From the NCBI GenBank assembly GCA_041389025.1, contig JAWKSP010000001.1, forward strand, positions 128,002-192,001: 64,000 nt of DNA. The letters are read 5' to 3'. Shown in pieces: positions 22,969 through 48,055 of this stretch. The translations under genes and the position numbers were made by a program. Position 1 is the first letter of the stretch. Each line of letters begins with the position of its first letter. This stretch comes from Minisyncoccota bacterium. GTDB lineage: Bacteria; Patescibacteriota; Minisyncoccia; Phycocordibacterales; UBA918. Under the pieces are notes generated by a model, which was not told the origin of the DNA, did not search any database, and was given only the letters and a program-made list of their open reading frames with translations.

Positions 22969-22969
22969 A

Positions 22970-23242: not shown

Positions 23243-23414
23243 ATACTACTTAGTATATAGTTTGTAATTTCTGTGTCAAGCGGCTTTGCTTTTGACCTAA
23301 TTTTTAATGAGCTTGCGACTATAAAAATGAAAATGCTCTTGTGGGGCAACTCCAGACGCAAGCAAAACTATTTGCTTGCTTCCTAGACACAAAAAGTCGG
23401 CTAAACTCCGACTT

Positions 23415-23568
23415 TATTTTGTGGGGTCAAGTTACTAAGTAAAATTTTTCACTACGTTCAAATTTTACTAAGTACTTGCTCCCCCGACTCGACCTTTTTC
23501 TTCTCTAGGAAGGAGAAGAAAACATGTCTCCGCCCGACACAAAGGTACGTAAGCCAAGCAGTTGGCTT
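23415..23568 (+). repeat. tRNA-trailer-associated repeat element, copy A (contains conserved hairpin 23496-23522 and CATGTCTCCGCCC box)
   Basis: About 75% identical to copies at 30887-31012 (inverted) and 35491-35650. Confidence 0.7.
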
Positions 23569-23573
23569 ACTAT

Positions 23574-23609
23574 AAAAACCGGCTATGATAATAATCACAG
23601 CCGGTTTTT
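23574..23609 (-). terminator. Terminator AAAAACCGGCT...AGCCGGTTTTT immediately 3' of tRNA-Leu
   Basis: 11-bp stem + T-run in tRNA sense. Confidence 0.55.
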
Positions 23610-23618
23610 ATACCTTTG

Positions 23619-23703
23619 TGTCCAGGACTGGAGTTGAACCAGCACGGGAATAATTCCCACTACCCCCTCAAGGTAGCGCGTCTACCAGTTTCGCCACCTG
23701 GAC
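23619..23703 (-). tRNA. tRNA-Leu (anticodon GAG), long variable arm, no encoded CCA
   Basis: Minus strand GTCCAGG...CTACC-TTGAGGG-GGTAG...variable arm TGGGAATTATTCCCGT...TTCAACT...CCTGGAC-A. Confidence 0.8.
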
Positions 23704-23770
23704 AGTTATGTCTCTATTTAGAAAATAAAGCCCCTGCATTATGCCTGAAAAGGTAAGTCACTTCAAGTTA

Positions 23771-23809
23771 AAAGGCCCACAAGCGAAGCTTGTGGGCCTT
23801 TTCTTTTTT
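23771..23809. terminator. Hairpin AAAGGCCCACAAGC-GAA-GCTTGTGGGCCTTT + T-run, downstream of rplS
   Basis: 14-bp perfect stem. Confidence 0.5.
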
Positions 23810-23818
23810 CTAAATCAA

Positions 23819-24403
23819 TTAGTCCTTCTTTTCTTCGGTCGTCTCTTCTCTTACCTCCTCTTTAACTTCATCTTTTGATTCTTCAGGAGTTTCTACCGCC
23901 TCAGCTTTAGCTACTTCTTCTTTGGCTTTCTCTTCAGCTTCTTTAGCTTCTTTCTCTTTTAGTTCCGCTTCCTCAAGAGCCTTGGCTTCAGCTGCCGCTC
24001 GCACCGCAGCTTCTGCTTCCGACTCAGTAGCCAAACTAAGAAATGAAGTTCGACGCATTTGTCGTTTAATCTCACGAGCCACCTTCTCACGGATGTAATA
24101 AAGCTTAGAGCGACGCACTTTAGCTCGCTTTACAATCTCAAGCTTGTCTATAAGTGGTGAATAAAGCGGGAAGATTTTTTCCACCCCGACACCACTGGCG
24201 ACTTTTCGTACTGTAAAAGTAGCTCCTGGCTCATCGCCATGCTTGCGGGCTAGCACCAAACCTTCAAAGATCTGAATACGAGTTTTACCCTTATCTTGAA
24301 TTTTTTGATGAACGCGCACAGTGTCTCCGGCACGAATACCCAGACCGCGTCGTTCCTCCATATTTACCGGTGAAATATTCACCCCTGTTACTGCTGTTTT
24401 CAT
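23819..24403 (-). CDS. rplS: 50S ribosomal protein L19 with ~75-aa acidic/lysine-rich C-terminal extension
   Basis: N-terminal 115 aa match L19 (GDTVRVHQKIQDKGKTRIQIFEGLVLARKHG...); tail is EAEAAVRAAAEAKALEEAELKEKEAKEAEEKAKEEV... Confidence 0.85.
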   Translation of the reverse strand: MKTAVTGVNISPVNMEERRGLGIRAGDTVRVHQKIQDKGKTRIQIFEGLVLARKHGDEPGATFTVRKVASGVGVEKIFPLYSPLIDKLEIVKRAKVRRSKLYYIREKVAREIKRQMRRTSFLSLATESEAEAAVRAAAEAKALEEAELKEKEAKEAEEKAKEEVAKAEAVETPEESKDEVKEEVREETTEEKKD

Positions 24404-24462
24404 ATAATTTATTACTAAACTCTAGAAGCGTTTAAGCGTGCCATAATCTACCACATACCTCT

Positions 24463-25239
24463 CTACTCTGCAATACGCTCGGCCGCTATTTCAAAATCAA
24501 TTGGTAAAGGAGCAATGAAACGCCTTTCTTCTCCATTTGGCAATGTAATCTCTAATATATGAGAGTGAAGTGCCAGTCTGGTTAATTCAAGGTTATTTGA
24601 ATCTTTCATTTTGTAATCAGCATAAAGCTCATCTCCGACAATCGGTCGATCAATCGCTCTTAAATGCACTCTTAGCTGATGAGTTCGACCTGTCTCTGGC
24701 TTTAGCTTAAGATAAGAAAAAGATTCACCCTCATATTCACCAACTCCGATTCTTTCAAAATGAGTAACAGCTGGTCGTAAAGTTCCTTTAGCTCCTTTTA
24801 AGGCTGAACGTTTTTTAAAATCCTTCGCACTACGACCAATCGGTCGATTGATAGTACCCCAACGGTCATGAATTCGTCCATACACAAAAGCTCGGTATTC
24901 TTTTTTTGCCAACCGATCGTGAAATTGAGCTTTAAGGAAAGCATGGGCTTCATTGGTCTTAGCCATAACCATCACCCCAGATGTCTCACGATCCAGTCGA
25001 TGCACCACCCCCGAACGCTCAAGTAAAGTACCGTCCGGTTTTTTTGACTCCTCCCCCACTCCTTTAGCGTCAGGGCACAAAGATAAAAACCAATCGACCA
25101 CCGTATCTTTGATACCAGAAGTCCAGTCCTCATGTACCAACATACCGTAAGGTTTATTGACCACCGCTACCGCTTCATCTTCATATAAAACAACCGGCGC
25201 CACCACCTTATCTACCAATTCGTCTTTTCCTTTTTCCAT
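24463..25239 (-). CDS. RluA-family pseudouridine synthase (start at MEKGKDEL...)
   Basis: HRLDRETSGVMVMAKT catalytic-Asp motif; overlaps uppS 3' end by ~30 nt. Confidence 0.75.
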   Translation of the reverse strand: MEKGKDELVDKVVAPVVLYEDEAVAVVNKPYGMLVHEDWTSGIKDTVVDWFLSLCPDAKGVGEESKKPDGTLLERSGVVHRLDRETSGVMVMAKTNEAHAFLKAQFHDRLAKKEYRAFVYGRIHDRWGTINRPIGRSAKDFKKRSALKGAKGTLRPAVTHFERIGVGEYEGESFSYLKLKPETGRTHQLRVHLRAIDRPIVGDELYADYKMKDSNNLELTRLALHSHILEITLPNGEERRFIAPLPIDFEIAAERIAE

Positions 25240-25900
25240 ATTGCTCAAGAATACCGACAAATTCAGTTTTTGTAAAAGCGGGCCAGTTGGTGTCAATAAA
25301 AAAGAATTCGCTGTAGACTGACTGCCAAGGTAAAAAGTTTGATAAACGATGTTCCCCACTGGTACGAATTATTATGTCTGGATCAGGCATACCGACAGTC
25401 CAAAGTAATTTTAAAAATTCTTCTTCTTTAATTTTCTTTCCTTGTTCGATCGCCTTGTTTACCGCCATCATTATTTCTGCTCGACCGCCATACGATATAG
25501 CCAACCAAACAGTAGTTTTGTATTTCATTTCTGTCACCTCCAATTCCCCAATCATTCTTTGGATATCATCAGGCAAATCGACTCGCCGACCAATTATTCT
25601 TACATTCACCTTTCGCTTCTCTGAATCTTCCTTAATTTTTCGCAACATCTGACGAAACAGATCCATTAAATAGCCAACCTCGGTTTTATCACGTTGCCAA
25701 TTCTCAGTTGAGAAAGCATAAAAAACACCGTGTGGAATTTCTTCCTCCACCAACCAATCCACCACATCCAAAAATTTCTCCTTACCAGCCAAATGACCGG
25801 CAAGAGTACTTTGTTCTCGCTCTTTGGCAAATCGTCGGTTACCATCCATAATGAAACCAACACATCGAACGCTGATCTTGGCTAAATTTTTATCACTCAT
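25208..25900 (-). CDS. uppS: Undecaprenyl-diphosphate synthase (cis-isoprenyl transferase)
   Basis: IMDGNRRFA...and C-terminal ...RTSGEHRLSNFLPWQSVYSEF motifs. Confidence 0.88.
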   Translation of the reverse strand: MSDKNLAKISVRCVGFIMDGNRRFAKEREQSTLAGHLAGKEKFLDVVDWLVEEEIPHGVFYAFSTENWQRDKTEVGYLMDLFRQMLRKIKEDSEKRKVNVRIIGRRVDLPDDIQRMIGELEVTEMKYKTTVWLAISYGGRAEIMMAVNKAIEQGKKIKEEEFLKLLWTVGMPDPDIIIRTSGEHRLSNFLPWQSVYSEFFFIDTNWPAFTKTEFVGILEQYGKRKRRIGR

Positions 25901-25903
25901 ACT

Positions 25904-26176
25904 TTAGTTCAACACCGAAAAATCATCGTAGGTTACCAAAGCAGTTCGCCACTCTACCGACACTCCCTCCACTTTCGCCAAAAGCGAACCTTCATGAAGA
26001 TACTCTACCAACTCTTTTAAACCGTCAGGTTCACCCTGTGCCACTACCAAGACCGAACCATCACTTTGATTCTTCACATAACCAACCAGTCCAAGCTCTC
26101 CAGCGGAATTTTGCACATAATCACGAAACCTCACGCCTTGTACCTTGCCGGTAACATTTGCTCTCATCTCAATCAT
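25904..26176 (-). CDS. acyP: Acylphosphatase
   Basis: 90 aa; VTGKVQGVRFRDYV...GYVKNQSDGSV signature. Confidence 0.8.
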   Translation of the reverse strand: MIEMRANVTGKVQGVRFRDYVQNSAGELGLVGYVKNQSDGSVLVVAQGEPDGLKELVEYLHEGSLLAKVEGVSVEWRTALVTYDDFSVLN

Positions 26177-26295
26177 AAATATAAGTGTCAGTATACAATT
26201 TTTGATTTAGATATTGAAATTATTTAAAAAAAATGTAGTATATAGCCTACTAACAGTTGCTACCTAGACGAAGTCGAAATTGTTACGTGAAAGAT

Positions 26296-26368
26296 GCGCG
26301 ATTAGCTCAGTTGGTAGAGCAGCTCGTTTACACCGAGAAGGTCGGGAGTTCAAGTCTCTCATCGCGCA
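26296..26368 (+). tRNA. tRNA-Val (anticodon TAC), no encoded CCA
   Basis: GCGCGAT-TA-GCTC-AGTTGGTA-GAGC...anticodon loop TTTACAC...GGGAG-TTCAAGT-CTCTC-ATCGCGC-A. Confidence 0.85.
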
Positions 26369-26689
26369 CATTAGATGGCCCGCTTTGCGGGCTTTTCTAA
26401 TGTGCGCGATAGCAAGCAAATTTCTTTGCTTGCGTGAGGACTTGAAAGACGGAGCGGTGAGGAAGAATGACGAACAAGCGAGTCGGCTATGAAAAAGCTG
26501 TGAACAACTAAAATATTAAGTTTTCTAACCCTTTCTATTTTTTGATAAGATATTATGAGAGACTTTGGCAACACGAAGGTAATCAAGTATCCTTCACACT
26601 TGGTTTCGTAACCCATGCGGCTATCCGTGCTAAAAGCACAAGGTGTCATACGTATTACGGGGTCTCAATCGGGGTCACGGTGTCACAGC

Positions 26690-27790
26690 ACCACCCTCGC
26701 TACGAGATCTCCACTCTTCGTGTTGCCAGAATCTCCCATATCAGAAAAGGTCCGAAAGGGCTCTTTCTTTTAACCAGATACCACATGATAGTGAGCATCT
26801 TTCGAGCTAAAGCAACTCCGAGCCACCTTAGAACCCTTTTTATCTTTGATTCTCGAATAGAATGTATATAACCTACCGGCTGAAGGTCTGATCTGACAGG
26901 CTGCTTCCACCATAATAGATCGCAGAAACGGTGAGCCTTTTCTGGTAATGTGTCCAAATCGCAACTTCCCTCCAGAAGAATGAGATGAGGATACTAATCC
27001 AGCGTAACTCGCTAACTGTTCTGGAGTCTTGAATCTTTCAAAATCTCCAACTTCAGCAATAATGGTTAGAGCGGTTAGTTCAGCTACACCAGGTATACTC
27101 ATCAATACCTTGGCACGTTCATCTATTTTAGCTTTTGATTTGATAATAACATCAAGTTCTTTGACTTCACTATTCACAAAATCAATGGTTTTTATTAATG
27201 ATTCAACCTCTTTTTATATAACTTATGGAAAACCTGATTCTTGATCCAGAGTTGTCCTTGTTTTCCAAACAGGTCAGTAACAGGACTTTCTAAACCATGT
27301 TTCCAGAGAATGCTATGGACTCGATTCTTAGTTCTGGTTCGTAAACGAATATAGAACATTCGCCAACGTACCAACTCACGCAGGTCTCTAACAGCCGGTG
27401 GTGCTAGGTATGCAGTGGCGATAAAATCTATACGAAGTAGTTCAGCGATAATTTCCGAGTCAACCTTATCGTGTTTAAGTCGACTTGCTGCAATAAGTTT
27501 AGTCTTAGCCGGATCTATCAGTTTAACTGTTATTCCAGTACTCTCCAGTACTTCAGCAAACCAACCCCATTGTGATACCGGTTCAATTCCGGCACATACT
27601 TTACTTATATTGATTGGTATCTGTTTTAGAGTAATAAGAGTATCTTGTTTGGTGGTTGGTACCTTACCTTGAAAAATTCTATTCTTATTTGAATCAATAA
27701 GTGTCCAATATCCGAAGGATTTATGCAGATCAATTCCTAAATAATATTCATTCATAGTACTAGTGTTACATTAATAATAATCAACTATTA
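26690..27790 (-). mobile_element. Degraded IS110-family insertion sequence (transposase split into three frames) adjacent to tRNA-Val
   Basis: 27195..27755 = DEDD N-terminal domain (LGIDLHKSFGYWTLID...); 26770..27177 = Transposase_20 core (LMSIPGVAELTALTIIAEVGDFERFKTPEQLASYAGL...); 26700..26957 = C-terminal tail in a third frame. Confidence 0.7.
26700..27755 (-). pseudogene. IS110-family transposase pseudogene (at least two frameshifts)
   Basis: As above. Confidence 0.65.
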
Positions 27791-28188
27791 ATATCGACCT
27801 ATGTATAGGCTAGCACTTTTTCATGACATCGGGGTCGTGAAAAATTTTTGAAGAAAATTTATTTGTGACCAAGTCTCTCATCGTATAACCTCACAACTCA
27901 ATACCTCCCCTTAAAATTTCAAAATACAACCTAGCAATCGCGGCTTGAGTCATTGGACTAAATTCTCCCTTCATTGCTTTTGTATACAGCTCCTCTACTG
28001 AATAATCTATTGTATCCAAAACCTCACCATCTGTTTCAGACACTTTCTTAAAATCTTTCACACAAAAAACTACTTGCTTAAAAAGTCAATAAACCACCCC
28101 GCACCACGAGCCTTAAACATCAACAAAAAAATGAACTCAGTAAAATGTTATGCTTAAAACATTATAAATTTGTATCTTAAGCTTAAGT

Positions 28189-30129
28189 TTGAATACAATA
28201 AAAATTGAAAATATGATAAACACTAATTGGTCAAAATATTATCTACCTAAACTTTCCAAGAACTTATTGTTTTCTACAATTATATTGAGTGTCGTTTTAG
28301 TTTTAGTTTTATCATTATTCATCTTACCCCAAAACGCGTCAGCTTCGACCGACAACCCCTCCTCTTACACCATAACATCGTATGATTATGTACCGGCCTT
28401 TAATGCTAAATTTTTTAATGGTGTTCCAGATATTTATCATCTTGATACAGTTACTATTCGTTATGAAACAGACAGCAACATGGATATCGTGCCACCGCCA
28501 GAAGTTAGTAATATTTTGGCTAGATTATATTATGTAAACAGTGATGGACAAAGACAAATTGAATATCAGTTTTTTGATATTGATCACTTATTTGTACCCG
28601 CACCTTATGTATGGACAAAAGCTGGGCAATATGAGGTGGACATATTTGGTTACACAAGCACATCAACTACCAGTGTATACCTAACAACCATGCAGTTTAA
28701 TGTAATCATAAATGGCGGACCATCTCCCACTTGTACCCTAACCGCCACTCCTGACACTATAGACCCTAACCAAAATCAAAGTGCTCTTTTAGAATGGAGC
28801 AGCACCAATGCCTCCACTACAATAATTGATCAAGGTGTCGGACCGGTGACCACTTCCGGATCAATATTAGTCTCACCCAATGCCACAACCACTTACACCG
28901 CTAATTTTACCGGACCAAACGGCACCAGTTCTTGTAGCGTGACAGTAAATGTGCCTAATCCAAAATTTATTCCACTTAACGAACAGGCGGCAAACTTAGC
29001 TCGTCAACTAGTTAATCATACTGAAGCCTATCTTTGGGGTGGTAAAGGTTGGGATTACGATCTAAGGGAATTCACTACTCCCGAGCGCATCCTATCCGGC
29101 TACACTTACTACAACCCAGATATAAAAGCTAAGGATACCGGCATAGGTGTAGACTGTTCAGGATTAATAACTTGGGCATTTAATCGTAGTTATAATGCCG
29201 TGGCCGGGTTTAATAATAATTTTATAAAGTATGTAAATGCTGACGGTATGTACCGAGACCATCAATCCGACCCAGTGAGCGAATCTGATCTTCTTCCTGG
29301 TGATACTCTTTCTTTTGATTGGGACAGTGATGGTTATATGGATCACGTGGCGATGTATGTCGGCGAAAGTGGTGGATATGATGTGGTTAATGCAGGAAGT
29401 CCAATAATTGGTATAGAAGAACAAATTAAAGATATTTATTCAAAAGTACCAGGTTTTGTTTCTTTCAGACGAATCCATCAAGCTGATACAAAGCTTGCCA
29501 TCAAAACTGGTTCACCGGTCGATTTGGAGATTATCGACCCTGACGGCAACACCTTATCCGCCGCCAGCACCATCCCTTCTGACGAAGAATACATTAGAGA
29601 AATTCCTAGTGAGATGTATTACCTCGAACTAGAGCAAGGTCACGATGGTCGCCCCGAAGACATAGTACTCTCACCCACAGCTAAAGATGGTGTATATACC
29701 ATAAAAGTTATTCCTGAAGCCGGAGCCGACCCAGCAGCCACCTACTCTTTAACTATAGAATTAAATGGTGTAGAAACAGTAGTTGCCAACAATGAAACTC
29801 TAGATACCATACCAGCTGAAGGTTTTGCTCTAAAATTGGCGGTTGGAGAAATCATCGGTCTTGATTCGACGGTTAAGGTTTTGCTTAGTGACCTATATCA
29901 GTCAGTTAGTAATCTAAACCTAAATTCAACACAACGTCAGAAAAACCTCCTATCAACGATTGAGTCGGCCATAAACTGGTTTGACAAAAACCGACCCGAT
30001 CAAATAGTCCGTAAACTCACAAAATTGCAAAATGATACCAATAGACATCTCGCCAATGAGCTCACAACCGAAGAATTAGCCAATATTATTCAGCAAATAG
30101 ATAACCTTCTGTTATTATTACAAGCATGA
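28189..30129 (+). CDS. Large secreted NlpC/P60-family cell-wall peptidase with N-terminal TM anchor and C-terminal PPC-like domain
   Basis: 646 aa; catalytic Cys in GVDCSGLITWAF and His in DHVAMYVGE; S/T/N-rich N-terminal region. Confidence 0.7.
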   Translation: MNTIKIENMINTNWSKYYLPKLSKNLLFSTIILSVVLVLVLSLFILPQNASASTDNPSSYTITSYDYVPAFNAKFFNGVPDIYHLDTVTIRYETDSNMDIVPPPEVSNILARLYYVNSDGQRQIEYQFFDIDHLFVPAPYVWTKAGQYEVDIFGYTSTSTTSVYLTTMQFNVIINGGPSPTCTLTATPDTIDPNQNQSALLEWSSTNASTTIIDQGVGPVTTSGSILVSPNATTTYTANFTGPNGTSSCSVTVNVPNPKFIPLNEQAANLARQLVNHTEAYLWGGKGWDYDLREFTTPERILSGYTYYNPDIKAKDTGIGVDCSGLITWAFNRSYNAVAGFNNNFIKYVNADGMYRDHQSDPVSESDLLPGDTLSFDWDSDGYMDHVAMYVGESGGYDVVNAGSPIIGIEEQIKDIYSKVPGFVSFRRIHQADTKLAIKTGSPVDLEIIDPDGNTLSAASTIPSDEEYIREIPSEMYYLELEQGHDGRPEDIVLSPTAKDGVYTIKVIPEAGADPAATYSLTIELNGVETVVANNETLDTIPAEGFALKLAVGEIIGLDSTVKVLLSDLYQSVSNLNLNSTQRQKNLLSTIESAINWFDKNRPDQIVRKLTKLQNDTNRHLANELTTEELANIIQQIDNLLLLLQA

Positions 30130-30710
30130 GATATTTTTTAGTTACCATTATACTTCTAGCCCTTGGAGTAGGTTATTACTGGTGGACATCAGTCACCACT
30201 CCAACCAATGAAGATAAAACAGATGTAGTATCAACTACCACTACCCAAAGCCAAAATCCTACTCCAGAAACTGAAACGACAACAAAATTAGACCACCAAG
30301 TCTACACCAATGATACGTGGGGTATTAAATTTAACTATCCAAATGATTGGGAGGTGTTAGCTAACACATTTAAAGCAGGGTCTAGCTTGTTCAATGTAAT
30401 AATACAACCAGAATCAAATGAGTCATTACCAAGACCTGTCTTTATAATAATAACCCCATCTGACTGGGGTAAAACAATGATTAAAAAATATCACGAAAAT
30501 GAAATCACTGATAGTGAATTAAAAACAGCAGGTCTTGAATACTTTAATTTTGAATCATCTGACATGGGAATACCGATACAAACTTACTTTATACCAATTA
30601 ACAACACCTACTGGATAAACATCTCCGGTAAAAAAGGCTATGAAACCGAACTCAACCAAGTTTTAGACTCACTAGAAATAACACCGGTTGAAATCAATAA
30701 CATTGAATAA
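30126..30710 (+). CDS. Hypothetical membrane-anchored protein (T/P-rich linker)
   Basis: 194 aa; overlaps preceding stop by 4 nt (operon). Confidence 0.35.
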   Translation: MRYFLVTIILLALGVGYYWWTSVTTPTNEDKTDVVSTTTTQSQNPTPETETTTKLDHQVYTNDTWGIKFNYPNDWEVLANTFKAGSSLFNVIIQPESNESLPRPVFIIITPSDWGKTMIKKYHENEITDSELKTAGLEYFNFESSDMGIPIQTYFIPINNTYWINISGKKGYETELNQVLDSLEITPVEINNIE

Positions 30711-30773
30711 AAATTCAATCTATTTCTACATATTCCCTCTTTTACATTTTTCTGTTATTCTAGCTCACACATT

Positions 30774-30845
30774 GCCCCCATAGTTCAATGGATAGAACAG
30801 GAGACTTCTAAGCTCTTGATGTGGGTTCGATTCCTGCTGGGGGCA
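30774..30845 (+). tRNA. Probable tRNA-Arg (anticodon TCT); atypical anticodon stem (one mismatch) and wobble-rich T-stem
   Basis: GCCCCCA-TA-GTTC-AATGGATA-GAAC...CTTCTAA...GTGGG-TTCGATT-CCTGC-TGGGGGC-A. Confidence 0.55.
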
Positions 30846-30855
30846 CAGCGTTAAG

Positions 30856-30881
30856 AAAAACAAAAACTGCTTTTTGTTTTT
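30856..30881 (+). terminator. A/T-only hairpin AAAAACAAAAA-CTGC-TTTTTGTTTTT directly after tRNA-Arg
   Basis: 11-bp perfect stem + T-run. Confidence 0.45.
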
Positions 30882-30886
30882 TAGCT

Positions 30887-31012
30887 GTGCCGGGCGGAGA
30901 CATGTTTTCTTCTCCTTCCCAGAGAAGAAAACAGTTGAGCCGGGGTCGCGAGCACTTAGTAGATTTCGCACGTAGTGCAGAAATATACTTAGTGACTCGT
31001 GACCACAAAATA
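30887..31012 (-). repeat. tRNA-trailer-associated repeat element, copy B (inverted relative to A/C; hairpin 30904-30932 GTTTTCTTCTC/GAGAAGAAAAC)
   Basis: Reverse complement aligns with copy C over ~125 bp. Confidence 0.7.
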
Positions 31013-31063
31013 GTGAGACTGACTTCAAGTGGCTGATCCCCCACCAATCTCGGTAAGTCTAGT

Positions 31064-31102
31064 AAAACAATAAAACCACTCGATTAAGTGGTTTTATTGT
31101 TT
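31064..31102. terminator. 16-bp perfect hairpin AAACAATAAAACCACT-CGATTA-AGTGGTTTTATTGTTT
   Basis: Read from sequence; downstream of the minus-strand pil gene cluster. Confidence 0.5.
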
Positions 31103-31305
31103 AAGCAATAGTATCAAAATGTTCTCGAACAGTTTTAACCTAATAGATCCAATAGATAGTTCCCTGAATAGCTTTCCAACCCTTTCCGAAGTTTTTCTTT
31201 TAAATACCTCTAGCTGTTGTTAAAAATGATGTTTCCTTACCCTTATATTTTATCTTTCCATTTGGCAATATTGTGCTATGAAAAAACTATGTAGAAATAC
31301 TTACT

Positions 31306-31797
31306 CTAAAAAGAGTTGGTTGGTAATAAAATTTCTCCGTCAATCACTGAATCCATATTAGGTGTATCTATATCGCCTTCTACCTCATCAACAGAAATAC
31401 TACTTGGTAAACCTTCAGTCGTTGTCGCACCAATCGAATTATCAAATTCATCCTCTATTGGAATCACTAAATCCTGATAGCCATTAACAGAAGCCTTTTT
31501 TAAATAATTATCATAAACCTCTTCCCTTTTACCAAAATAATCTACTACACTATCTACTAATTCTTTCTTATAGATAACACTATCAATAGCGATTTCAGAG
31601 TCTTTAGTGTCAATCATTCGATATTCTTGATAAGAATTAAAACTCCAAACACCACCAAGAATAAAGAGTAACAACCCTATGGTTACGCCTAAAAACCATT
31701 CTCTCTCTACATGCATTATATGATTATCAACAAACTTTCTCTTCCTTGGATGCAAGATACCATCTGCCATCTTTTTTATTTCTTCCTTATTTATCAT
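31306..31797 (-). CDS. Hypothetical single-TM protein downstream of pilO (start uncertain)
   Basis: One TM helix; same operon as pilMNO. Confidence 0.35.
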   Translation of the reverse strand: MINKEEIKKMADGILHPRKRKFVDNHIMHVEREWFLGVTIGLLLFILGGVWSFNSYQEYRMIDTKDSEIAIDSVIYKKELVDSVVDYFGKREEVYDNYLKKASVNGYQDLVIPIEDEFDNSIGATTTEGLPSSISVDEVEGDIDTPNMDSVIDGEILLPTNSF

Positions 31798-32321
31798 GGT
31801 GATTTTGTTGTTATGAAGGCTGTTATTGTTCCTTCCCAAAGACCTTCTTCTATCTCACTTAGAGTCAAGGCTTCGATATAAGAGTGATAAGGTAAATTTT
31901 CCATAACTTTAGTAAAATCAAGGACAGAATTCTTCTTGCCGCTATAAGCAAAAGTAGCCTTCACCGCTTCTTGATCACCAGCCTTACCCACCACACCATC
32001 TAAAGCTTTGGTCTGGAAAGTGAGTCCAAACTTTGGTGCTAAGGTCTCAATTTCACTCAAAAAAACAATGGTATCATCATTACCTTTAAGAAATTTCCTA
32101 CCCAACAACAGCCTTTCCTCCTCTGTCTCAGTCGCTGTTCTGGTAATATTTCTATAAGCTGCTTCTTTTTTATTATTCTCCTCCAAAAGACTGACCTTTT
32201 CCTCCAGACGATCACCTTGTTTGTTGATAAAAAATAAAAAGAAAGAAAATATACTAGCGGAAACAATCACTACTACGATAGAAATTATAAATACGTATTT
32301 TGTTTTATTGTTGATTCTCAT
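31794..32321 (-). CDS. pilO: PilO-like type IV pilus assembly protein
   Basis: 175 aa, N-terminal TM + coiled coil, position after pilN. Confidence 0.5.
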   Translation of the reverse strand: MRINNKTKYVFIISIVVVIVSASIFSFFLFFINKQGDRLEEKVSLLEENNKKEAAYRNITRTATETEEERLLLGRKFLKGNDDTIVFLSEIETLAPKFGLTFQTKALDGVVGKAGDQEAVKATFAYSGKKNSVLDFTKVMENLPYHSYIEALTLSEIEEGLWEGTITAFITTKSP

Positions 32322-32323
32322 AA

Positions 32324-32866
32324 CTAATTTTCTTGATCATTTAAAGTAACAGCGATAGAAAAGTCTATATCGCGATCTTTAGCTAAGTTTGAAATAGGTA
32401 AATCTACTTGACTAACTTTTGATAAAGATAATAAATTATTTCTAAAATCAGACAAATCTTGCCTAGTCTTGGCTTCACCCATAAGTTGAACCGAATTCAA
32501 CTTTAAATCTGATCGATTAAACTGCATACTACTAATGGACAAACCATTATTTTGAAGAGAGTTAAAACTATCAACTAAATCAGAAAACTTCTTAATACTT
32601 CTAAGATTAATCAACACTTGTGCTTGATTATTGGCTTTAACTAAAGATTGTTGCGCATTGTCAAAATCAGCAACTTTAGTAGCCATTTCATTTACCTTAT
32701 TTTCATAAACCCCAATTTGTGAATCAATCAACACATACACCGGAAGCAATAGAAGTGAAACTGAAATTAAAACCACACTAAGAATAAAAATCCAAACCGA
32801 AGTTACTCTGATCCAGTACTCAGTCACAACATTTTTCTTTGCTTCTGGTGGTAGTAGGTTAATCAT
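32324..32866 (-). CDS. pilN: Type IV pilus assembly protein PilN
   Basis: Starts MINLLPPEAKK (INLLP hallmark) then TM helix. Confidence 0.7.
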   Translation of the reverse strand: MINLLPPEAKKNVVTEYWIRVTSVWIFILSVVLISVSLLLLPVYVLIDSQIGVYENKVNEMATKVADFDNAQQSLVKANNQAQVLINLRSIKKFSDLVDSFNSLQNNGLSISSMQFNRSDLKLNSVQLMGEAKTRQDLSDFRNNLLSLSKVSQVDLPISNLAKDRDIDFSIAVTLNDQEN

Positions 32867-32870
32867 AATA

Positions 32871-33971
32871 TTAAACGGTATTTTTTATAGCTAAACCAAT
32901 CGCTGTAGCATAGCCATATGAATAGCGTTTTTCAATTGGTGGTATCATAAGCGAAGTGTCAAAAGCATTTTCCCAGACATTACCCCGAAAACAGGGCACT
33001 CCCAAAACCTCAGTCAAATAATCTGGCAACCCACGTAAATTAACACTACCACCACACATTACTATTCTTTTAATTTTTCTCGACTTATCTCCATCAGTCC
33101 TTTGGTGCCAGTATTGCATCCGTAAAGCAATTTCGTCTTTTATTATTGATACCACCTGTATAAGAGACTCAGCAATTCGATCGTCATTTATATCTCCCAC
33201 TAAACCATAGGTATTTTTTATATTAGTCAGTTCTTTTTCCGATGTATCATTGCCAAGAACTTTACGTAGAGCTTGTGAAAGTTGACCACCACCAACATCG
33301 ATAGTCGAAGTGTATAAAAGAGACTCTCCAATCACAATACCGACTCCGGTTCTAGTCTTACCAAAATCAATAAGCATTACCACATCATCCTCATAAGATT
33401 TTGATACAACCGAACGAGCCATTGCTTGGGCCTCAACTTCAAATGAAAGTGGGGTTAGACCAGCTTCAATACAAACCTCGTGATACTTCATTACAGTTTC
33501 TTTTTGATAAGCCGACACAACAATGTTAGTAACATTATTCTTTCCTTTATTTTCTAATACATCATAATCAAAAATTGCATCTCGAGCTGAAATTGGCACG
33601 TTTTCTTCCAACCTAAATTCCAACAAACTCCTGACTTCATCAGCCGGTACATCAGTTTTTATTTCTGTTTCAAAAATATAAGTTTTTTCTTCTGGTAAAG
33701 AGACTCTTATGTATTCTGCTCCGGTTTGTTTTTTAAACTCTTTCAATACGTTGACCATAGCCTTCTGATCAACAATCTCTCCTCTTTCTAAAACACTGCT
33801 TGGTATATCTATATCACCCCATTTATCTAAAATTCTAAACCGATCGGTTCGTAGCGACGGTTTAAAAGAAACATACTTCATAGAAGTATCCGATATATCA
33901 ACCCCTACTCCAGCCATAGACAGATAATTTGGTGGCGGTAAAATTTTTGAAAAAGCTGAAAAGACACTCAT
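32871..33971 (-). CDS. pilM: Type IV pilus assembly ATPase-like protein PilM (actin fold)
   Basis: 366 aa; ...VMLIDFGKTRTGVGIV...HVVVGGGG... actin-like motifs. Confidence 0.75.
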   Translation of the reverse strand: MSVFSAFSKILPPPNYLSMAGVGVDISDTSMKYVSFKPSLRTDRFRILDKWGDIDIPSSVLERGEIVDQKAMVNVLKEFKKQTGAEYIRVSLPEEKTYIFETEIKTDVPADEVRSLLEFRLEENVPISARDAIFDYDVLENKGKNNVTNIVVSAYQKETVMKYHEVCIEAGLTPLSFEVEAQAMARSVVSKSYEDDVVMLIDFGKTRTGVGIVIGESLLYTSTIDVGGGQLSQALRKVLGNDTSEKELTNIKNTYGLVGDINDDRIAESLIQVVSIIKDEIALRMQYWHQRTDGDKSRKIKRIVMCGGSVNLRGLPDYLTEVLGVPCFRGNVWENAFDTSLMIPPIEKRYSYGYATAIGLAIKNTV

Positions 33972-34014
33972 GTGTATAGTATACGCTGTTCACTCTCTAA
34001 TAATTGGCAAAAAC

Positions 34015-34617
34015 TCACAGTGTTAACCAAAGATAAACAGCTACCACAATTAGAGTAATAATTGTAATAGGATAGATATTGCCACGAGCAATTCTTACTG
34101 CGTCCTCTCCATATTTATAAGTTAGATAACCAGCTATACCATAACGAATTGATCGACCAATAAACACACCGATTAAAAACAAGATTAAATTACCTTTAAT
34201 TGCCCCTGCTGCCAAAGCAGCTAGAGTAAACGGTACTGGTGTAATTGCACCCACCAAACCAAGAGCAAAAGTACTATCACGAAATCGTTCAACTATATTA
34301 TAAAATTGACCAACTGAATCTGACGATAAAAAACCAAGAATGACATCAATAAAAAACGTTGCTGTTACATAAGCTATCACCCCACCAATAATAGAAGTGA
34401 AGGTAGTAACAATTACAGCTGTCACCACTCTTTTGCGGTGTAAAATTATATAAGCTACTAAAAAAGGATCAGTTATCAAAGGAATAAGGAGAACAGATTC
34501 AACAAAAGACACTATTCCCAAAAACCAAAGACCGTAACGTGAACCAAGCAAGCCGCGTGACCGTTTAGTTACTTCTTTCATCTCTTTATTTGGATTTGTG
34601 ATTGGTTCTAATGACAT
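34015..34617 (-). CDS. Polytopic membrane protein (YqaA/DedA-like, uncertain)
   Basis: 200 aa, ~5 TM helices. Confidence 0.3.
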   Translation of the reverse strand: MSLEPITNPNKEMKEVTKRSRGLLGSRYGLWFLGIVSFVESVLLIPLITDPFLVAYIILHRKRVVTAVIVTTFTSIIGGVIAYVTATFFIDVILGFLSSDSVGQFYNIVERFRDSTFALGLVGAITPVPFTLAALAAGAIKGNLILFLIGVFIGRSIRYGIAGYLTYKYGEDAVRIARGNIYPITIITLIVVAVYLWLTL

Positions 34618-34620
34618 TTT

Positions 34621-34953
34621 TTATTTAGCACTGGCACCAGATTCAATTTTTATTTGTGGCACAAGTAAGCTAAAAGAATCTTCTGTGCTAGTTGCCAAAA
34701 TCATACCATGACTCATAAGGCCTTTTATTTTTCTTGGTTCTAAATTGGTAATAAAAGGACATTGCACTTCTACCAAAGATTGCGGGTCTTCAAAATAAGT
34801 ACGAATACCGGAGATTATTTGTCTCAACTCTTCTTCCCCAACATCTACCATTAATTTTAAAAGACGATCTGCTTCCGGTACCACCTCAACTGATTTAATT
34901 GTACCGATTTTTATTTCTATCTTTGCGAAATCATCATAAGTTATATATTCCAT
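34621..34953 (-). CDS. tRNA-binding domain protein (CsaA/Myf-type OB fold)
   Basis: 110 aa; KIEIKIGTIKSVEVVPEADRLLKLMVDVGEE...GLMSHGMILA typical. Confidence 0.7.
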   Translation of the reverse strand: MEYITYDDFAKIEIKIGTIKSVEVVPEADRLLKLMVDVGEEELRQIISGIRTYFEDPQSLVEVQCPFITNLEPRKIKGLMSHGMILATSTEDSFSLLVPQIKIESGASAK

Positions 34954-34973
34954 AATTTTTTATTTAAATTAGC

Positions 34974-35351
34974 TTATCTTCTGCTTAAAAAACCTTCCAA
35001 TATCAAAGCCGCTGCTGAAGCATCAGTCATATTATTTCTCCCTTGTGTACGAATAGCTGCTTGAGTAGTAAATTGCTCTGGCTCGAGATGAATTGGTAAA
35101 CCAGTCTCTAAAGTCAGATCTGTTATTAATTCTTCTACCAATTTATGTATTTCATTAGCCTTTCCCTTCTTATCAACCGAGTGTCCAACAACAATCTCTC
35201 CAACTTGCCTTTCGTTAATTAAACTAATTATTTTATCAAATAACTTTTTGTCATTATCAATAACCGCATGAGGAAAAGCCATTTTTCCCATTTCATCACT
35301 AAGCGAAATCCCTACTCGCTTAGTACCATAATCAATCCCCAAATATCTCAT
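34974..35351 (-). CDS. ruvX: Holliday-junction resolvase-like YqgF/RuvX
   Basis: MRYLGIDYGTKRVGISLSD... diagnostic N-terminus. Confidence 0.8.
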   Translation of the reverse strand: MRYLGIDYGTKRVGISLSDEMGKMAFPHAVIDNDKKLFDKIISLINERQVGEIVVGHSVDKKGKANEIHKLVEELITDLTLETGLPIHLEPEQFTTQAAIRTQGRNNMTDASAAALILEGFLSRR

Positions 35352-35490
35352 AACTTAAAGAATAGCACGTGATTTTGTAGGTAGGCAAATTATCAGACGT
35401 AAATAAACCAAGATTAATTTATAATAGAAAACCAAGCAGTTGGCTTTCTAAAATGAAAATATATGATAAATTAATTTATCTATCAGATAC

Positions 35491-35650
35491 ATTCAGATAC
35501 ATTTTGTGGTCACGAATCACTAAGTATATTTGTTCGTCTTCGACTCCAAATATACTAAGTGTTCTCGACCCCAGCTCGACTGTTTTTCTGCCTAGAAAAA
35601 GGCAGAAAAACATGTCTCCGCCCAGCACAAAAGTACGAAAGCCAAGCAGT
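35491..35650 (+). repeat. tRNA-trailer-associated repeat element, copy C (hairpin 35572-35601 GTTTTTCTGCC/GGCAGAAAAAC). Flanked by a 28-bp direct repeat CCAAGCAGTTGGCTTTCTAAAATGAAAA (35432-35459 and 35632-35659)
   Basis: Alignment with copies A and B; compensatory stem substitutions relative to A/B. Confidence 0.7.
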
Positions 35651-35727
35651 TGGCTTTCTAAAATGAAAACATTGGTGACATAGTCACCAATGTTTTCATT
35701 TTACTTTTGTGCTCCCGCCAGGAATCG

Positions 35728-35919
35728 AAACTTACAGTTTCAGTACCCTGATTGGTTATTTTATTTCGTTTCACTCATAAAATATCTCAATCAGGCTTCG
35801 ATTCGTGCAACGGATTTTTCTTTCATTATCATTACAGAAAAATCCTGCACCTGCCGCTCGCACAAAAGTAAAATCGGCATTTAGCCGATTTTACTTTTGT
35901 GCTCCCGCCAGGAATCGAA
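35728..35919 (-). repeat. 31-bp direct repeat comprising the 3' 20 nt of tRNA-Arg plus 11 nt of trailer (35889-35919 and 35728-35758), att-like duplication
   Basis: Exact repeat TTTTACTTTTGTGCTCCCGCCAGGAATCGAA; also a 43-bp perfect palindrome at 35652-35694. Confidence 0.6.
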
Positions 35920-35971
35920 CCTGGAGCACTGGTACCGCAAACCAATATTTTATCCATTAAACTACGGGAGC
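35900..35971 (-). tRNA. tRNA-Arg (anticodon GCG as read), no encoded CCA
   Basis: Minus strand GCTCCCG-TA-GTTT-AATGGATA-AAAT...TTGGT-TTGCGGT-ACCAG...CAGGT-TCGATTC-CTGGC-GGGAGC-A. Confidence 0.65.
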
Positions 35972-45772: not shown

Positions 45773-45804
45773 TTCTTATAATAAGGATAATTTTAAATTA
45801 CATT

Positions 45805-45863
45805 AAAACAAGAACATAATAAGACCGCGAGCAAAGCTCGCGGTCTTATTATGTTCTTGTTTT
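45805..45863. terminator. 28-bp perfect palindrome AAAACAAGAACATAATAAGACCGCGAGC-AAA-GCTCGCGGTCTTATTATGTTCTTGTTTT between convergent arsR-like and creD
   Basis: Read from sequence. Confidence 0.6.
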
Positions 45864-45870
45864 AATAATA

Positions 45871-48011: not shown

Positions 48012-48055
48012 GTTTTTATATTTTACTATCTACATATATTTACCTCAACTTAACA

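Follow-up and report, generated by a model that had tools for sequence, protein, structure and literature searches.

The 64,000-nt stretch of Minisyncoccota DNA analyzed here (the window) contains a previously undescribed family of tRNA-end inserts, non-coding elements of approximately 170 to 210 nt that lie between the discriminator/CA of a tRNA gene and its native trailer and terminator or, rarely, at the 3' end of a protein gene. In our estimate, there is about an even chance that the family is a non-autonomous, structure-dependent insertion element that is specific to tRNA 3' ends and is read within the tRNA transcript. The unit runs from the tRNA end through a terminator-like hairpin (T1), a hairpin with a CUGC loop (h2), a 12- to 13-nt segment (AS) that is complementary to tRNA positions 70 to 73 and the first 8 trailer nucleotides, and two helices (P2 and P3) to a short terminal repeat of the tRNA end.

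Copies in the window and at related loci

The three copies located by the original prediction (A, B, and C) all exist, and their cores show pairwise identities of 73 to 77%, in agreement with the estimate of about 75%; a repeat search of the window aligned A with B over 127 nt at 82%. A covariance model built from the three copies and scanned over the window recovered them at 144 to 153 bits, with the next-best match, an unrelated palindrome, scoring 29 bits. Exactly three occurrences of the box GGGCGGAGACATG were found, and allowing two mismatches added none (0.34 expected by chance). A conserved box had been described and is real, but the form given for it, CATGTCTCCGCCC, is the complement of the functional tRNA-sense strand. 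The compensatory change noticed in the 10- to 11-bp hairpin of copy C is also genuine; the three copies have 12 compensated pairs in all, this one included. The proposed unit length of about 125 to 160 bp did not hold, as the real unit is about 200 nt long and starts at the tRNA 3' end; the terminator-like hairpin, the second hairpin, and the tRNA-complementary segment were all absent from the earlier description. Likewise, A, B, and C are the intact copies, but two further ones had been missed, a decayed copy and copy D, together with the insertion sequence (IS) that targets the element and splits copy D. As stated originally, tRNA-Leu(GAG), tRNA-Arg(TCT), and tRNA-Arg(GCG), identified by ARAGORN, each lie upstream of their own copy on the same strand. 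No integrase, reverse transcriptase, or HUH enzyme was found among window ORFs of at least 100 amino acids (aa).

Table 1. Positions in the window of the tRNA-end inserts, their parts, and their host tRNAs
Feature	Position	Strand	Basis
T2, displaced native tRNA-Leu terminator, 3' of copy A	23393..23415	-	Terminator scan, empty sites
Copy A, whole insert, first trailer base to terminal CACAAAAT repeat	23416..23617	-	
Copy A P3, long helix, ACUUAGUA / UACUUAGU, conserved U-U mismatch and G-U pair	23423..23485	-	
Copy A P2, helix with invariant GGCGGAGACAUG box and pyrimidine-rich loop	23486..23535	-	RNAalifold
Copy A AS, GTACCTTTGTGTC	23536..23548	-	Complementarity to tRNA end, P0 covariation
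Copy A h2, 8-bp hairpin, CUGC tetraloop	23550..23569	-	
Copy A T1, long terminator-like hairpin, flanking A and T runs	23571..23612	-	Sequence, predicted fold
tRNA-Leu(GAG), host of copy A	23618..23703	-	ARAGORN; Rfam tRNA, 48.6 bits
tRNA-Val(TAC), host of copy D	26296..26369	+	ARAGORN, Rfam
Copy D 5' part, T1 through P2 up to ...GCGAGTCGG	26370..26486	+	Sequence; comparison with L009, L001
Copy D inverted tRNA end	26396-26410	+	
Copy D h2	26411-26433	+	
Copy D second antisense segment	26434-26446	+	
IS110-family insertion sequence splitting copy D	26487..27829	-	Pfam DEDD_Tnp_IS110, Transposase_20
Copy D 3' part, shortened P3, then 13-nt direct repeat	27830..27883	+	Sequence
tRNA-Arg(TCT), host of copy B	30774..30846	+	ARAGORN, Rfam
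Copy B	30847..31013	+	Covariance model, 153 bits
Copy B leader and A/T-only h2, CTGC loop	30850-30882	+	
Copy B AS	30883-30891	+	
Copy B P2	30892-30941	+	
Copy B P3	30942-31004	+	
Copy B terminal repeat	31005-31013	+	
Partial repeat of T1 tail and h2, 3' of copy C	35427..35459	-	Direct repeat, 94% identical, 210-nt spacing
Copy C, starting from pseudo-tRNA end	35498..35713	-	Covariance model, 144 bits
Copy C terminal repeat	35498-35507	-	
Copy C P3	35508-35572	-	
Copy C P2	35573-35623	-	
Copy C AS	35624-35636	-	
Copy C h2	35638-35657	-	
Copy C T1	35660-35702	-	
Copy C S1	35702-35713	-	
Decayed "long-repeat" copy, between tRNA-Arg(GCG) and copy C	35698..35898	-	Covariance model, 21-22 bits
tRNA-Arg(GCG), host of decayed copy and copy C	35899..35971	-	ARAGORN, Rfam

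The boundaries of copy A were set by comparison with empty tRNA-Leu sites, and the trailer of one of these (L019), CAAAATAAAAAG, matches the sequence following copy A. The whole copy A region has a predicted fold of -105 kcal/mol (z = -11.5), and insert-free tRNAs bear the same style of hairpin as its T1. The partner of its AS, tRNA positions 70 to 73 with 8 trailer bases, lies at 23611-23622, and the TTGTG of the AS is also complementary to CACAA at the insert 3' end. In the decayed copy, the tRNA 3' end is present in inverted form at 35850-35878 and again, with the trailer, as a direct repeat at 35698-35730, itself part of a 34/35-identical repeat (35698-35732); the copy also has two hairpins, and the same arrangement is conserved at locus L011. 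The partial repeat on the other side of copy C is probably a remnant of another unit. The junction of P2 with P3, a conserved site, is where the IS110-family element interrupts copy D. Two ORFs (27195-27755 and 26770-27177) hold the pieces of its broken transposase, and the IS is 78% identical to one at locus L014 that has the same right junction (CATGACAT joined to CGGGGTCG). The 13-nt repeat of the tRNA-Val 3' end that closes copy D, AAGTCTCTCATCG, is also present at 26352-26364.

Related copies were found at 14 other Patescibacteria loci, in Patescibacteria, Saccharibacteria, and Parcubacteria MAGs and in metagenome contigs, giving 19 covariance-model matches (17 distinct) of 50 to 153 bits. 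Nearly all copies lie 55 to 70 nt 3' of a same-strand tRNA, and 13 different tRNA species serve as hosts. The predicted tRNA association holds for the 17 distinct sequences from the 14 other loci. At L001 to L011, each copy sits behind a same-strand tRNA. The wording "always" was too strong, as 15 of the 17 arrays examined follow a tRNA, but 2 follow protein genes, rpsI at L012 and an unnamed gene at L014. Tandem arrays occur at L007, L009, and L010, and decayed copies include the one adjoining copy C, the L023 tRNA-Leu copy, and copy 2 of L007. Copy B and copy Y of L010 share an identical 50-nt leader behind different tRNAs in different genomes.

Fold, covariation, and pairing with the tRNA end

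Covariation was counted in model-fitted alignments and in S1 segments cut out by position. In the main helices, 90.8% of cells are paired, and the predicted covariation was confirmed in the 17 distinct sequences, where both partners changed in 32 of 49 pairs. This number was reached by none of 500 shuffles, which overstate the significance because the sequences are related, and slid controls were 34 to 43% paired. Individually, 95% of P2 (helix 3) and 92% of P3 (helix 4) are paired, and two-sided changes affect 10 of 15 pairs in P2 and 15 of 22 in P3. P0, the helix between AS and the tRNA end, is 99% paired (two-sided changes in 8 of 12 pairs), h2 in nine loci is 100% paired (7 of 8), and P0 and h2 together have 99.4% of cells paired (15 of 20). 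P3 contains a conserved purine-purine pair and a pair at columns 91-155 that is G-U in 13 of the 17 sequences. On the tRNA-sense strand, there are 40 G-U cells versus 6 A-C cells, and the sense fold is predicted to be more stable than the antisense fold by 9 kcal/mol. These sequence comparisons indicate that the structure is maintained by selection on the tRNA-sense strand.

The segment paired with AS starts at tRNA position 70 in every case. Nine copies have an AS that covers positions 70 to 73 and the trailer, and in these the helix with the copy's own tRNA end is 8 to 13 bp long; with other tRNA ends, it averages 5.6 bp. The match of AS to bases 70 to 72 of each different tRNA was counted against the mobile-element reading.

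Insertion at tRNA 3' ends and competing explanations

At the orthologous L19-tRNA-Leu(GAG) site, the insert is present in the window and at L003, L020, and L023 and absent at L018, L019, L021, L022, L025, and L026. The trailer of the empty sites matches what follows copy A, i.e., the native trailer reappears 3' of the insert. This reappearance, together with presence and absence at orthologous tRNA sites, identifies the element as an insertion and supports the mobile element at tRNA 3' flanks, one of three readings that had been offered. The tRNA-end direct repeats range from 4 to 35 nt, which matches no single known transposition chemistry. Another reading, a structured tRNA-trailer RNA, is supported by the covariation and the selection on the tRNA-sense strand, and the two are probably aspects of one thing. 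The element may act single stranded in the tRNA sense, most simply as a read-through RNA from the tRNA promoter. AS would then be an internal guide, clamping the tRNA end to the left end of the element (P0) or, alternatively, clamping its right end (helix P1), and this clamping would define the junctions at which insertion takes place and the tRNA-element co-transcript is cut. A protein supplied in trans may bind the invariant P2/P3 boxes. T1 looks like an efficient terminator, and P0, P2, and P3 would need read-through to be present as RNA.

Orthologous copies are 73 to 83% identical with compensated helices in genomes whose proteins are only 27 to 82% identical, and such conservation is more in keeping with a host-selected RNA than with a selfish repeat. 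A domesticated host RNA, either a fixed tRNA-trailer domain or a small RNA gene using the tRNA promoter, is possible, although we rate it well below the insertion element. The helix of AS with the tRNA end, stacked on the 18- to 20-bp T1, would be a processing stem, e.g., for RNase III. Two products would result from cutting, a freed tRNA 3' end and a stable P2-P3 RNA of 130 nt with a protein-binding or regulatory role, and mobility would be historical only. Same-tRNA copies, such as A and L003, and C and L011, are 80 to 83% identical and compensated in syntenic but divergent genomes; P0 covaries, with G-U intermediates solely in the RNA sense; and the conserved G-U and purine-purine pairs of P3 also favor such an RNA, as does the pyrimidine-rich P2 loop, which at L011 is CCUCCUUA and resembles the 16S rRNA 3' end. 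In addition, the pseudo-tRNA 3' end behind tRNA-Arg(GCG) is identical to the tRNA at 20 to 21 of 21 positions in two genomes (their proteins are 42 to 59% identical). However, occupancy of the orthologous tRNA-Leu sites is patchy among close relatives (4 occupied, 6 empty), decayed copies exist, and one copy is tolerated with an IS inside; inserts are found on only some tRNAs with no relation to whether CCA is encoded, and the same subtype occurs behind different tRNAs.

The strand specificity of the structure, which tolerates G-T pairs, could also be that of DNA hairpins bound by a Y1 (HUH) transposase encoded elsewhere, which would make the element a derivative of an IS200/IS605- or REP-type transposon of single-stranded DNA, an explanation that we consider unlikely. 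AS, directly 5' of the P2 foot, would be a guide pairing with the flanking target (P0) and with the element's own 3' end (P1), and insertion would occur 3' of the target in the exposed non-template strand of the tRNA gene. Consistent with this, the left flank and the right end are both CACA (CGCA behind tRNA-Trp), any terminal inverted repeats are at most 5 bp long, the orientation tracks the target strand and not the direction of replication, and a survey reports TnpB-like genes, which are IS605-family components, in Patescibacteria (PMC13011429). Yet the left hairpin is unlike the right one, the guide has 12 to 13 nt instead of 4, such chemistry is not expected to leave direct repeats as long as 35 nt, no Y1 transposase lies within the 64 kb, and Rfam, which gave no match for the element, gave none with its IS605-related RNA models. 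The third reading offered originally, attachment sites, is the weakest of the three, and we hold it to be quite improbable that the copies are integrase scars, i.e., collapsed attL/attR arms of phages, plasmids, or islands at tRNA 3' ends. The tandem arrays, the flanking direct repeats (13 to 35 nt in "long-repeat" copies, where they begin in the T-loop as with classical tRNA integrases), and the motif ACTTAGT, present twice about 34 bp apart and taken as protein-binding sites in double-stranded DNA, agree with scars. Against them, the halves of a copy never enclose an integrase or cargo, the sole interruption being the IS110-family element with its own ends; three motif patterns had no match in 2.9 million viral contigs; compensatory changes and a one-strand G-U excess in covarying helices are unexpected in duplex protein-binding sites; and an att arm has no reason to match the tRNA bases left of the junction, as AS does. 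A small protein gene on the opposite strand, starting ATG TCT CCG CCC (MSPP...) behind a Shine-Dalgarno-like GGAGG in a hairpin loop, is hardly credible. The ATG and first four codons are invariant, and most copies have a purine-rich stretch 8 to 12 nt upstream, but these "conserved codons" are merely the complement of the invariant RNA box. The ORF varies from 10 to 52 aa with no conserved end and no conservation past residues 4 to 9, its frame runs through the hairpins into the antisense of the tRNA, and the wobble-pair bias favors the other strand.

Comparison with known systems

The insertion element shares with REP/BIME, REPIN, ERIC, and Correia-type repeats a non-coding, strongly folded unit of about 100 to 200 nt, a fixed orientation at the 3' ends of transcription units, and a copy number that varies between relatives. 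IS621 and its relatives insert in REP sequences, and both kinds of repeat are landing sites of IS110-family elements. Unlike REP-type repeats, the element occurs almost exclusively at tRNA 3' ends, contains a segment complementary to the individual tRNA end, brings its own terminator hairpin, and ends in a tRNA-end repeat, and no RAYT-type gene was seen. In IS608, target choice is directed by a transposon-borne guide. IS200/IS605 transposons and the element have in common single-strand-specific hairpins, a short sequence 5' of the hairpin foot that pairs with the left flank or the element's own right end, and insertion that occurs 3' of a short target and leaves no duplication of fixed length, but they differ in guide length (12 to 13 nt here, not 4), in the dissimilar hairpins at the ends of the element, in its repeats of up to 35 nt, and in the lack of a Y1 transposase in the window. 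Islands and prophages integrated in tRNA genes (attL/attR) likewise use the tRNA 3' end, have flanking direct repeats, and accrete in tandem, whereas the element is about 200 nt long without integrase or cargo, holds an inverted copy of the tRNA end, and has a conserved, covarying, strand-specific structure.

The bridge (seek) RNA of IS110-family elements is a non-coding RNA of 130 to 200 nt with two stem-loops and complementarity to the DNA target (PMC11208160), and the element resembles it in all of these respects. However, copies A, B, and C have no adjoining recombinase, and no loop-borne two-sided guides like those of bridge RNA were identified in the element. Because the one such IS in the window is inserted into a copy, the family is the target of the IS110-family element and not its RNA. 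Group I introns, common in Patescibacteria tRNA genes (PMC13011429), have a guide (P1/P10) that, like AS, is an internal segment pairing with the upstream "exon" end or alternatively with the other boundary. Unlike these introns, the element lies after the tRNA and not inside it, has no catalytic core, matched no Rfam intron model, and did not show the conserved U-G pair at the junction. Some non-coding RNAs are linked to tRNAs and released by tRNA processing, such as bacterial 3' external transcribed spacers and the products of plant tRNA-snoRNA genes. Like them, the element places a small RNA directly behind a same-strand tRNA, where it can use the promoter and processing enzymes of the tRNA, but here a terminator-like hairpin separates the tRNA from the element RNA, and the element is an insertion with presence/absence polymorphism that pairs with the tRNA end.

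Copies behind tRNA genes and their relatives

The repeats of the window are noncoding insertions at tRNA 3' ends whose structure is conserved in the tRNA sense and whose internal segment is matched to the end of the tRNA. Six tRNA genes were located in the window by ARAGORN, and the three intact inserts, copies A, B, and C, all lie downstream of one of them and on its strand, in agreement with the original prediction of repeats placed 3' of tRNA genes in a fixed orientation. The shared sequence family that it proposed was recovered by a repeat search, in which A and B matched over 127 nt at 82% identity, with shorter matches of A and B to C. The conserved box, GGGCGGAGACATG, which is the complement of the CATGTCTCCGCCC first reported, occurs exactly three times in the window when two mismatches are permitted, with 0.34 occurrences expected by chance. 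A covariance model built from A, B, and C, as had been suggested, scored these copies at 144 to 153 bits and gave no comparable score elsewhere in the 64 kb. With its filters off, the model returned only hairpin noise in the window beyond these copies and a weak, decayed copy adjoining C. Copy D, which lies behind tRNA-Val(TAC) and is split by an insertion sequence (IS), was recognized by eye and not by the model. The neighbors of A, B, and C are ordinary chromosomal and housekeeping genes, including those for L19, a pseudouridine synthase, UppS, acylphosphatase, PilM/N, RuvX, and MsrA/B. L19 and the product of the N-terminal transposase ORF are each 100% identical to proteins of a Candidatus Paceibacterota MAG, which places the window in a Patescibacteria (CPR) chromosome.

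Other features also lie in the window. A type II toxin-antitoxin pair, with a RelB-like antitoxin and a YafQ-like toxin, is situated just past the distal end of copy A. Farther along, a perfect 31-nt inverted repeat with a 3-nt loop separates an ArsR-type regulator gene from a CreD-like gene and is probably a bidirectional terminator. An RHS polymorphic-toxin locus encodes a 2,608-aa RHS/FG-GAP/SpvB protein, downstream of which are small ORFs, including those for a Tox-REase-7 toxin and an Imm26 immunity protein. This locus contains four copies of a 300-nt repeat, two of them 99% identical, and looks like an array of displaced toxin-tip cassettes.

Features of the window and of comparison loci (window coordinates unless a locus is named)
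Feature	Coordinates	Strand	Remark
tRNA-Leu(GAG), host of A	23618-23703	-	ARAGORN
tRNA-Arg(TCT), host of B	30774-30846	+	ARAGORN
tRNA-Arg(GCG), host of C	35899-35971	-	ARAGORN
P2 apical loop (example)	23505-23515	-	
P2 apical loop, L011	about 1640-1652		
tRNA-Val(TAC) copy, L023	445-560	-	
Direct repeat of tRNA 3' segment	35698-35732 with 35888-35922		34/35 identical
Direct repeat of tRNA 3' segment	26352-26364 with 27871-27883		copy D
Direct repeat of tRNA 3' segment, L010			19 nt
Direct repeat of tRNA 3' segment, L020			17 nt
Partial unit	35427-35459		
IS110-family element	26487-27829	-	1.34 kb; splits copy D
Transposase ORFs of this element	27195-27755; 26770-27177		
3' noncoding region of this element	26554-26740		
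IS in L014	about 3722-5046		
Type II toxin-antitoxin pair	22714-23242	-	
RelB-like antitoxin	22970-23242		
YafQ-like toxin	22714-22968		
ArsR-type regulator gene	45452-45772		
31-nt inverted repeat	45802-45866		3-nt loop
CreD-like gene	45871-47214		
RHS locus	47178-62064		
RHS/FG-GAP/SpvB protein	54238-62064	-	2,608 aa
Tox-REase-7 toxin	50888-51427		
Imm26 immunity protein	53752-54219		
300-nt repeat, two of four copies	49326-49625; 54854-55153		99% identical

When one genome from each of 185,579 species was searched for the pattern GGCGGAGACATG...CTTAGT...CTTAGT, four loci were recovered, all in Patescibacteria, Saccharibacteria, or Parcubacteria MAGs, and the same pattern was found at nine loci among metagenome contigs. 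Viral contigs gave zero matches to this pattern and to two other patterns, and no phage source was found among them. The covariance model identified 19 copies, 17 of them distinct, with scores of 50 to 153 bits, and additional copies (L014, L020, and L023/L024) came from loci retrieved by their neighboring proteins. The host tRNAs are Leu-GAG, Arg-TCT, Arg-GCG, Ala-TGC, Tyr-GTA, Val-GAC, Val-TAC, Trp-CCA, Glu-CTC, and Ile-TAT. The expectation that every copy abuts a tRNA gene was borne out by the first copies of loci L001 to L011, which are on the strand of the tRNA at a distance of 54 to 72 nt, except in L011, where an intervening decayed copy widens the gap to 220 nt. It failed for two copies behind protein genes, one (L012) 3' of the rpsI stop codon on the same strand and the other (L014) 3' of an unnamed protein gene. 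A second tandem copy is present in L007, L009, and L010. L006 and L007 are near-identical contigs of a tRNA-Trp locus with one and two tandem copies, respectively, and the tandem junction in L007 joins GTGACC at the end of one helix (P3, described below) to GTGACC inside a hairpin (h2), which suggests that the copy number changed by recombination at this 6-nt homology.

Architecture of the insert and its match to the tRNA end

The three copies in the original prediction are real, and comparison of the flanks of all copies showed that the actual unit is larger than the extent assigned to them. Read on the tRNA-sense strand, the tRNA 3' end is followed by about eight trailer bases ending in GTA and then by T1, a terminator-like, perfect hairpin of 18 to 20 bp between A and T runs. 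The bases TAG precede h2, an 8-bp hairpin with a CUGC loop, and next comes the tRNA-complementary segment, AS, of 12 to 13 nt. Two helices follow: P2, which contains the invariant GGCGGAGACAUG box and whose internal loop is purine rich, and the long P3, with ACUUAGUA and UACUUAGU and a conserved U-U mismatch, G-U pair, and A-G pair. The tRNA end is then briefly repeated, as CACA... or, at tRNA-Trp, as CGCA, and a second terminator, T2, completes the unit. Insert-free tRNAs in L003 are followed by a T1-like long hairpin only, and this hairpin is therefore the normal tRNA terminator style of the lineage. Such tRNA 3' hairpins, typical of these genomes (L003, positions 700 to 900; tRNA-Leu of L018, L019, L021, and L025; T1 of the window), are 15 to 20 bp long and nearly perfect, and their flanking A and T runs pair with each other. 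They are far beyond the typical length of intrinsic terminators and long enough to be substrates of double-strand RNases. The predicted fold of locus A (237 nt; -105 kcal/mol, z = -11.5) reproduces exactly these domains, and that of the complementary strand is 9 kcal/mol less stable. The apical loop of P2 is pyrimidine rich in most copies (CUCCUUCCUA), although not in L002, L004, or L009, and in L011 it reads CCUCCUUA, identical to the 3' end of 16S rRNA; judged from these sequences, the loop could pair with ribosome-binding sites.

The complement of AS comprises tRNA positions 70 to 73 and the next eight bases, in a constant register. The tRNA end with its trailer and the corresponding AS read GACACAAAGGTA and GTACCTTTGTGTC in A, GACACAACGGTA and GTACCGTTGTGTC in L003, TCCACCACCGTA and GTACGGTGGTGGA in L002, and CCCGCCAAGGTA and GTACCTTGGCGGG in L006. 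In nine such copies, the longest helix formed by AS is 8 to 13 bp with the copy's own tRNA end versus a mean of 5.6 bp with other tRNA ends. When the helix of AS with the tRNA end and trailer, P0, was aligned together with h2 for nine loci, with the tRNA-end segments excised by position and not by search, 99.4% of cells were paired and both sides had changed in 15 of the 20 pairs; the non-Watson-Crick pairs are solely G-U, in the tRNA sense. The TTGTG of AS is alternatively complementary to CACAA at the 3' end of the element, forming the helix P1 (84% paired; 4/5 pairs compensated). The apparent junction is to the right of tRNA bases 70 to 72, which AS also matches.

More divergent copies form a second type, in which h2 splits an extended antisense copy of the last 18 to 23 nt of the tRNA and the tRNA 3' end is directly repeated over a longer stretch (13 to 35 nt). 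This type includes copy D, the copy adjoining C, L010-X (one of the copies within L010), L020, L004, and the tRNA-Val copies of L001 and L023. In the L023 tRNA-Val copy, the antisense segment extends over the final 23 nt of the tRNA, with the CCA that the genome encodes (TGGTAGCGCGATGAGAGATTTGAA), and bears a formal likeness to a retroviral primer-binding site; the complement of CCA is absent from other copies. Target-primed copying was considered as the source of the inverted copy of the tRNA end and rejected, since the order of the parts is incompatible with it. Behind tRNA-Arg(GCG), two divergent genomes retain a pseudo-tRNA 3' end that hardly differs from the tRNA.

The covariation that the original prediction had seen in one hairpin extends through the core of the element. 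Across the 17 distinct cores, 90.8% of cells are paired and 32 of the 49 pairs are altered on both sides, in an alignment that was fitted to the model and contains related sequences. None of 500 shuffles reached any of five measures, and sliding the partners by one to three columns lowered the pairing to 34 to 43%. On the tRNA-sense strand there are 40 G-U cells and 6 A-C cells, an A-C cell on one strand being G-U on the opposite one. This asymmetry is spread over about 15 different columns, and the pair at columns 91 and 155 is G-U in 13 of the 17 sequences. By these sequence comparisons, the structure of the element is under selection, and on the tRNA-sense strand.

Occupied and empty sites and an IS110-family element

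The gene order AcyP-UppS-RluA-L19-tRNA-Leu(GAG) of the window is conserved as a syntenic block in many relatives. At its tRNA-Leu site, the window and L003 have elements of the same type, L020 has one of the other type, and the element of L023 is decayed; the site is empty in L018, L019, L021, L022, L025, and L026. The trailer of the empty site in L019, GGGCA/CAAAATAAAAAG, recurs after copy A as CCCCA/CAAAATAAAG, followed by T2; therefore, the native trailer and terminator were displaced downstream by insertion at the last bases of the tRNA. Copy B, behind tRNA-Arg(TCT), and L010-Y, behind a tRNA-Ile array, share an identical 50-nt leader that starts directly after ...GCACA, and the same subtype thus reached two different tRNAs. 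Tandem arrays and nested remnants, including the copy adjoining C, a partial unit, and the X-Y-X' arrangement of L010, suggest that insertion at this kind of site recurred. Orthologous copies are nevertheless well conserved, at 83% (A and L003) and 80% (C and L011) identity, and their neighboring proteins are 57 to 82% and 42 to 59% identical, respectively. The flanking direct repeats range from 4 nt (B and L005) to 35 nt (the copy adjoining C), without a fixed-length duplication.

The element that splits copy D belongs to the IS110 family and carries its transposase in two ORFs. Copy D is broken at the conserved P2/P3 junction (...GCGAGTCGG/CGGGGTCG...), and an IS in L014, 78% identical, is inserted into another copy and shares the right junction, CATGACAT/CGGGGTCG. 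The IS has subterminal inverted repeats (ATGAAAAAG and CTTTTTCAT), and its apparent target site is GCGAGNCGG/GGTCG. Its 3' noncoding region is structured, with 25-nt closing arms of 88% complementarity (repeat I24), and contains CGGGGTC twice and CCCTCGC, which match both flanks of the insertion site. Both ISs retain TTACGGGGTCTCAAT and CCCTCGC in this region, and one of the two CGGGGTC stretches is conserved in the L014 copy of the IS. Stretches matching both sides of the target are expected of a bridge or seek RNA (PMC11208160), for which this region is a candidate. Given the shared junction in copy D and L014 and the target-matching stretches, the insert family appears to be the natural target of this IS. 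Such a target is of interest because IS110-family elements are being developed as programmable recombinases. The inserts themselves were also considered as internally deleted IS110 elements; this was rejected, as the IS has its own subterminal inverted repeats and, in two unrelated loci, is bordered by P2 and P3 halves that are intact.

Alternative explanations and known classes

There is about an even chance that the insert is a mobile, structure-dependent element. Such an element would act as a single strand in the tRNA sense, in the simplest case as an RNA made by read-through of T1. Consensus scans of both strands revealed no promoter consistent across A, B, and C. AS may be an internal guide that either joins the tRNA end to the left end of the element (P0) or holds the right end (P1), and clamping in this way would set the junctions. 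The invariant boxes of P2 and P3 may bind a factor supplied in trans. A domesticated trailer RNA is a possible explanation of smaller weight; if the match of AS directs processing of the tRNA precursor, it would add a new level of tRNA maturation to minimal-genome organisms. The pairing may serve insertion, which would be a selfish role, processing of the joint transcript of tRNA and element, which would be a host role, or both. Derivation from a single-stranded-DNA transposon is improbable. The hairpins at both ends and the one-strand bias (40 G-U, or G-T, versus 6 A-C) resemble IS200/IS605-type elements. As for the guide of such elements, AS is placed 5' of P2 and can pair with the left flank (P0) and with the right end (P1), at a length of 12 to 13 nt and as a single guide for both ends. 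No Y1 (HUH) enzyme, integrase, resolvase, or reverse transcriptase was detected in the window ORFs of 100 aa or more. That the inserts are att scars is more doubtful still. At both insert ends the tRNA 3' segment is directly repeated, as in tRNA-integrating islands and prophages, but the inserts are only 170 to 210 nt long and have no ORF, integrase, or cargo between the repeats, and the Phage_integrase, Resolvase, and Recombinase families were not detected in window ORFs of that size. A small ORF can hardly be the explanation, since the antisense frames opening with ATG TCT CCG CCC encode 10 to 52 aa and share only MSPP, with no conserved length and nothing conserved past the invariant box.

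For the mobile element, a further and rather unlikely step is that base pairing selects the insertion site, AS being the reprogrammable internal guide of a protein-less element of about 200 nt. AS would then form base pairs at the tRNA 3' end, where the tRNA-sense strand is exposed, and with both ends of the element itself, serving as a splint at the junctions for cutting and joining, carried out either by the RNA or by an enzyme of the host or one acting in trans. tRNA genes are classic landing sites of integrating elements, and the known cases, to our knowledge, depend on integrases that recognize the tRNA gene as duplex DNA. Guided insertion, if true, would make this the smallest guided mobile element known, with a new and very compact nucleic-acid-guided mode of tRNA-gene targeting, distinct from integrases, IS110 bridge RNAs, and CRISPR-associated transposons.

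The element lies outside any described family found and is more structured and more specific than originally predicted. Rfam 15 detected only tRNAs in the window at the gathering threshold, and at E values up to 10 it gave only noise on the copies between 23000 and 36500, with no family and no intron match. The literature searched, including that on tRNA introns of Patescibacteria, held no description of this insert family. Hammerhead, hairpin, k-turn, 5S, SRP, retron, and Y RNA folds do not fit; there are no conserved unpaired junction bases, and Rfam was negative. Unlike a group I intron, the element has only two helices after its guide-like segment. It differs from retron noncoding RNAs in that no reverse transcriptase was detected in the window ORFs of 100 aa or more and from IS110 bridge RNAs in that A, B, and C are flanked by housekeeping genes and not within a DEDD recombinase element. 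Terminal inverted repeats of a classical MITE (at least about 10 bp) were not found in the copies, whose core is closed just by TTGTG...CACAA (5 bp); unlike a MITE derived from a DDE element, the ends are otherwise unrelated, and there is no fixed-length target-site duplication. The family defines an unannotated RNA that genome annotation of these bacteria currently misses, and it explains several "pseudo-tRNA 3' end" fragments. Several Patescibacteria lineages carry this 200-nt, gene-less element exactly at tRNA 3' ends, with a sequence matched to the last bases of each tRNA. Nearest to it in kind are small structured intergenic repeats and nonautonomous insertion elements, from which it differs by its specificity for tRNA ends and its matched internal segment.
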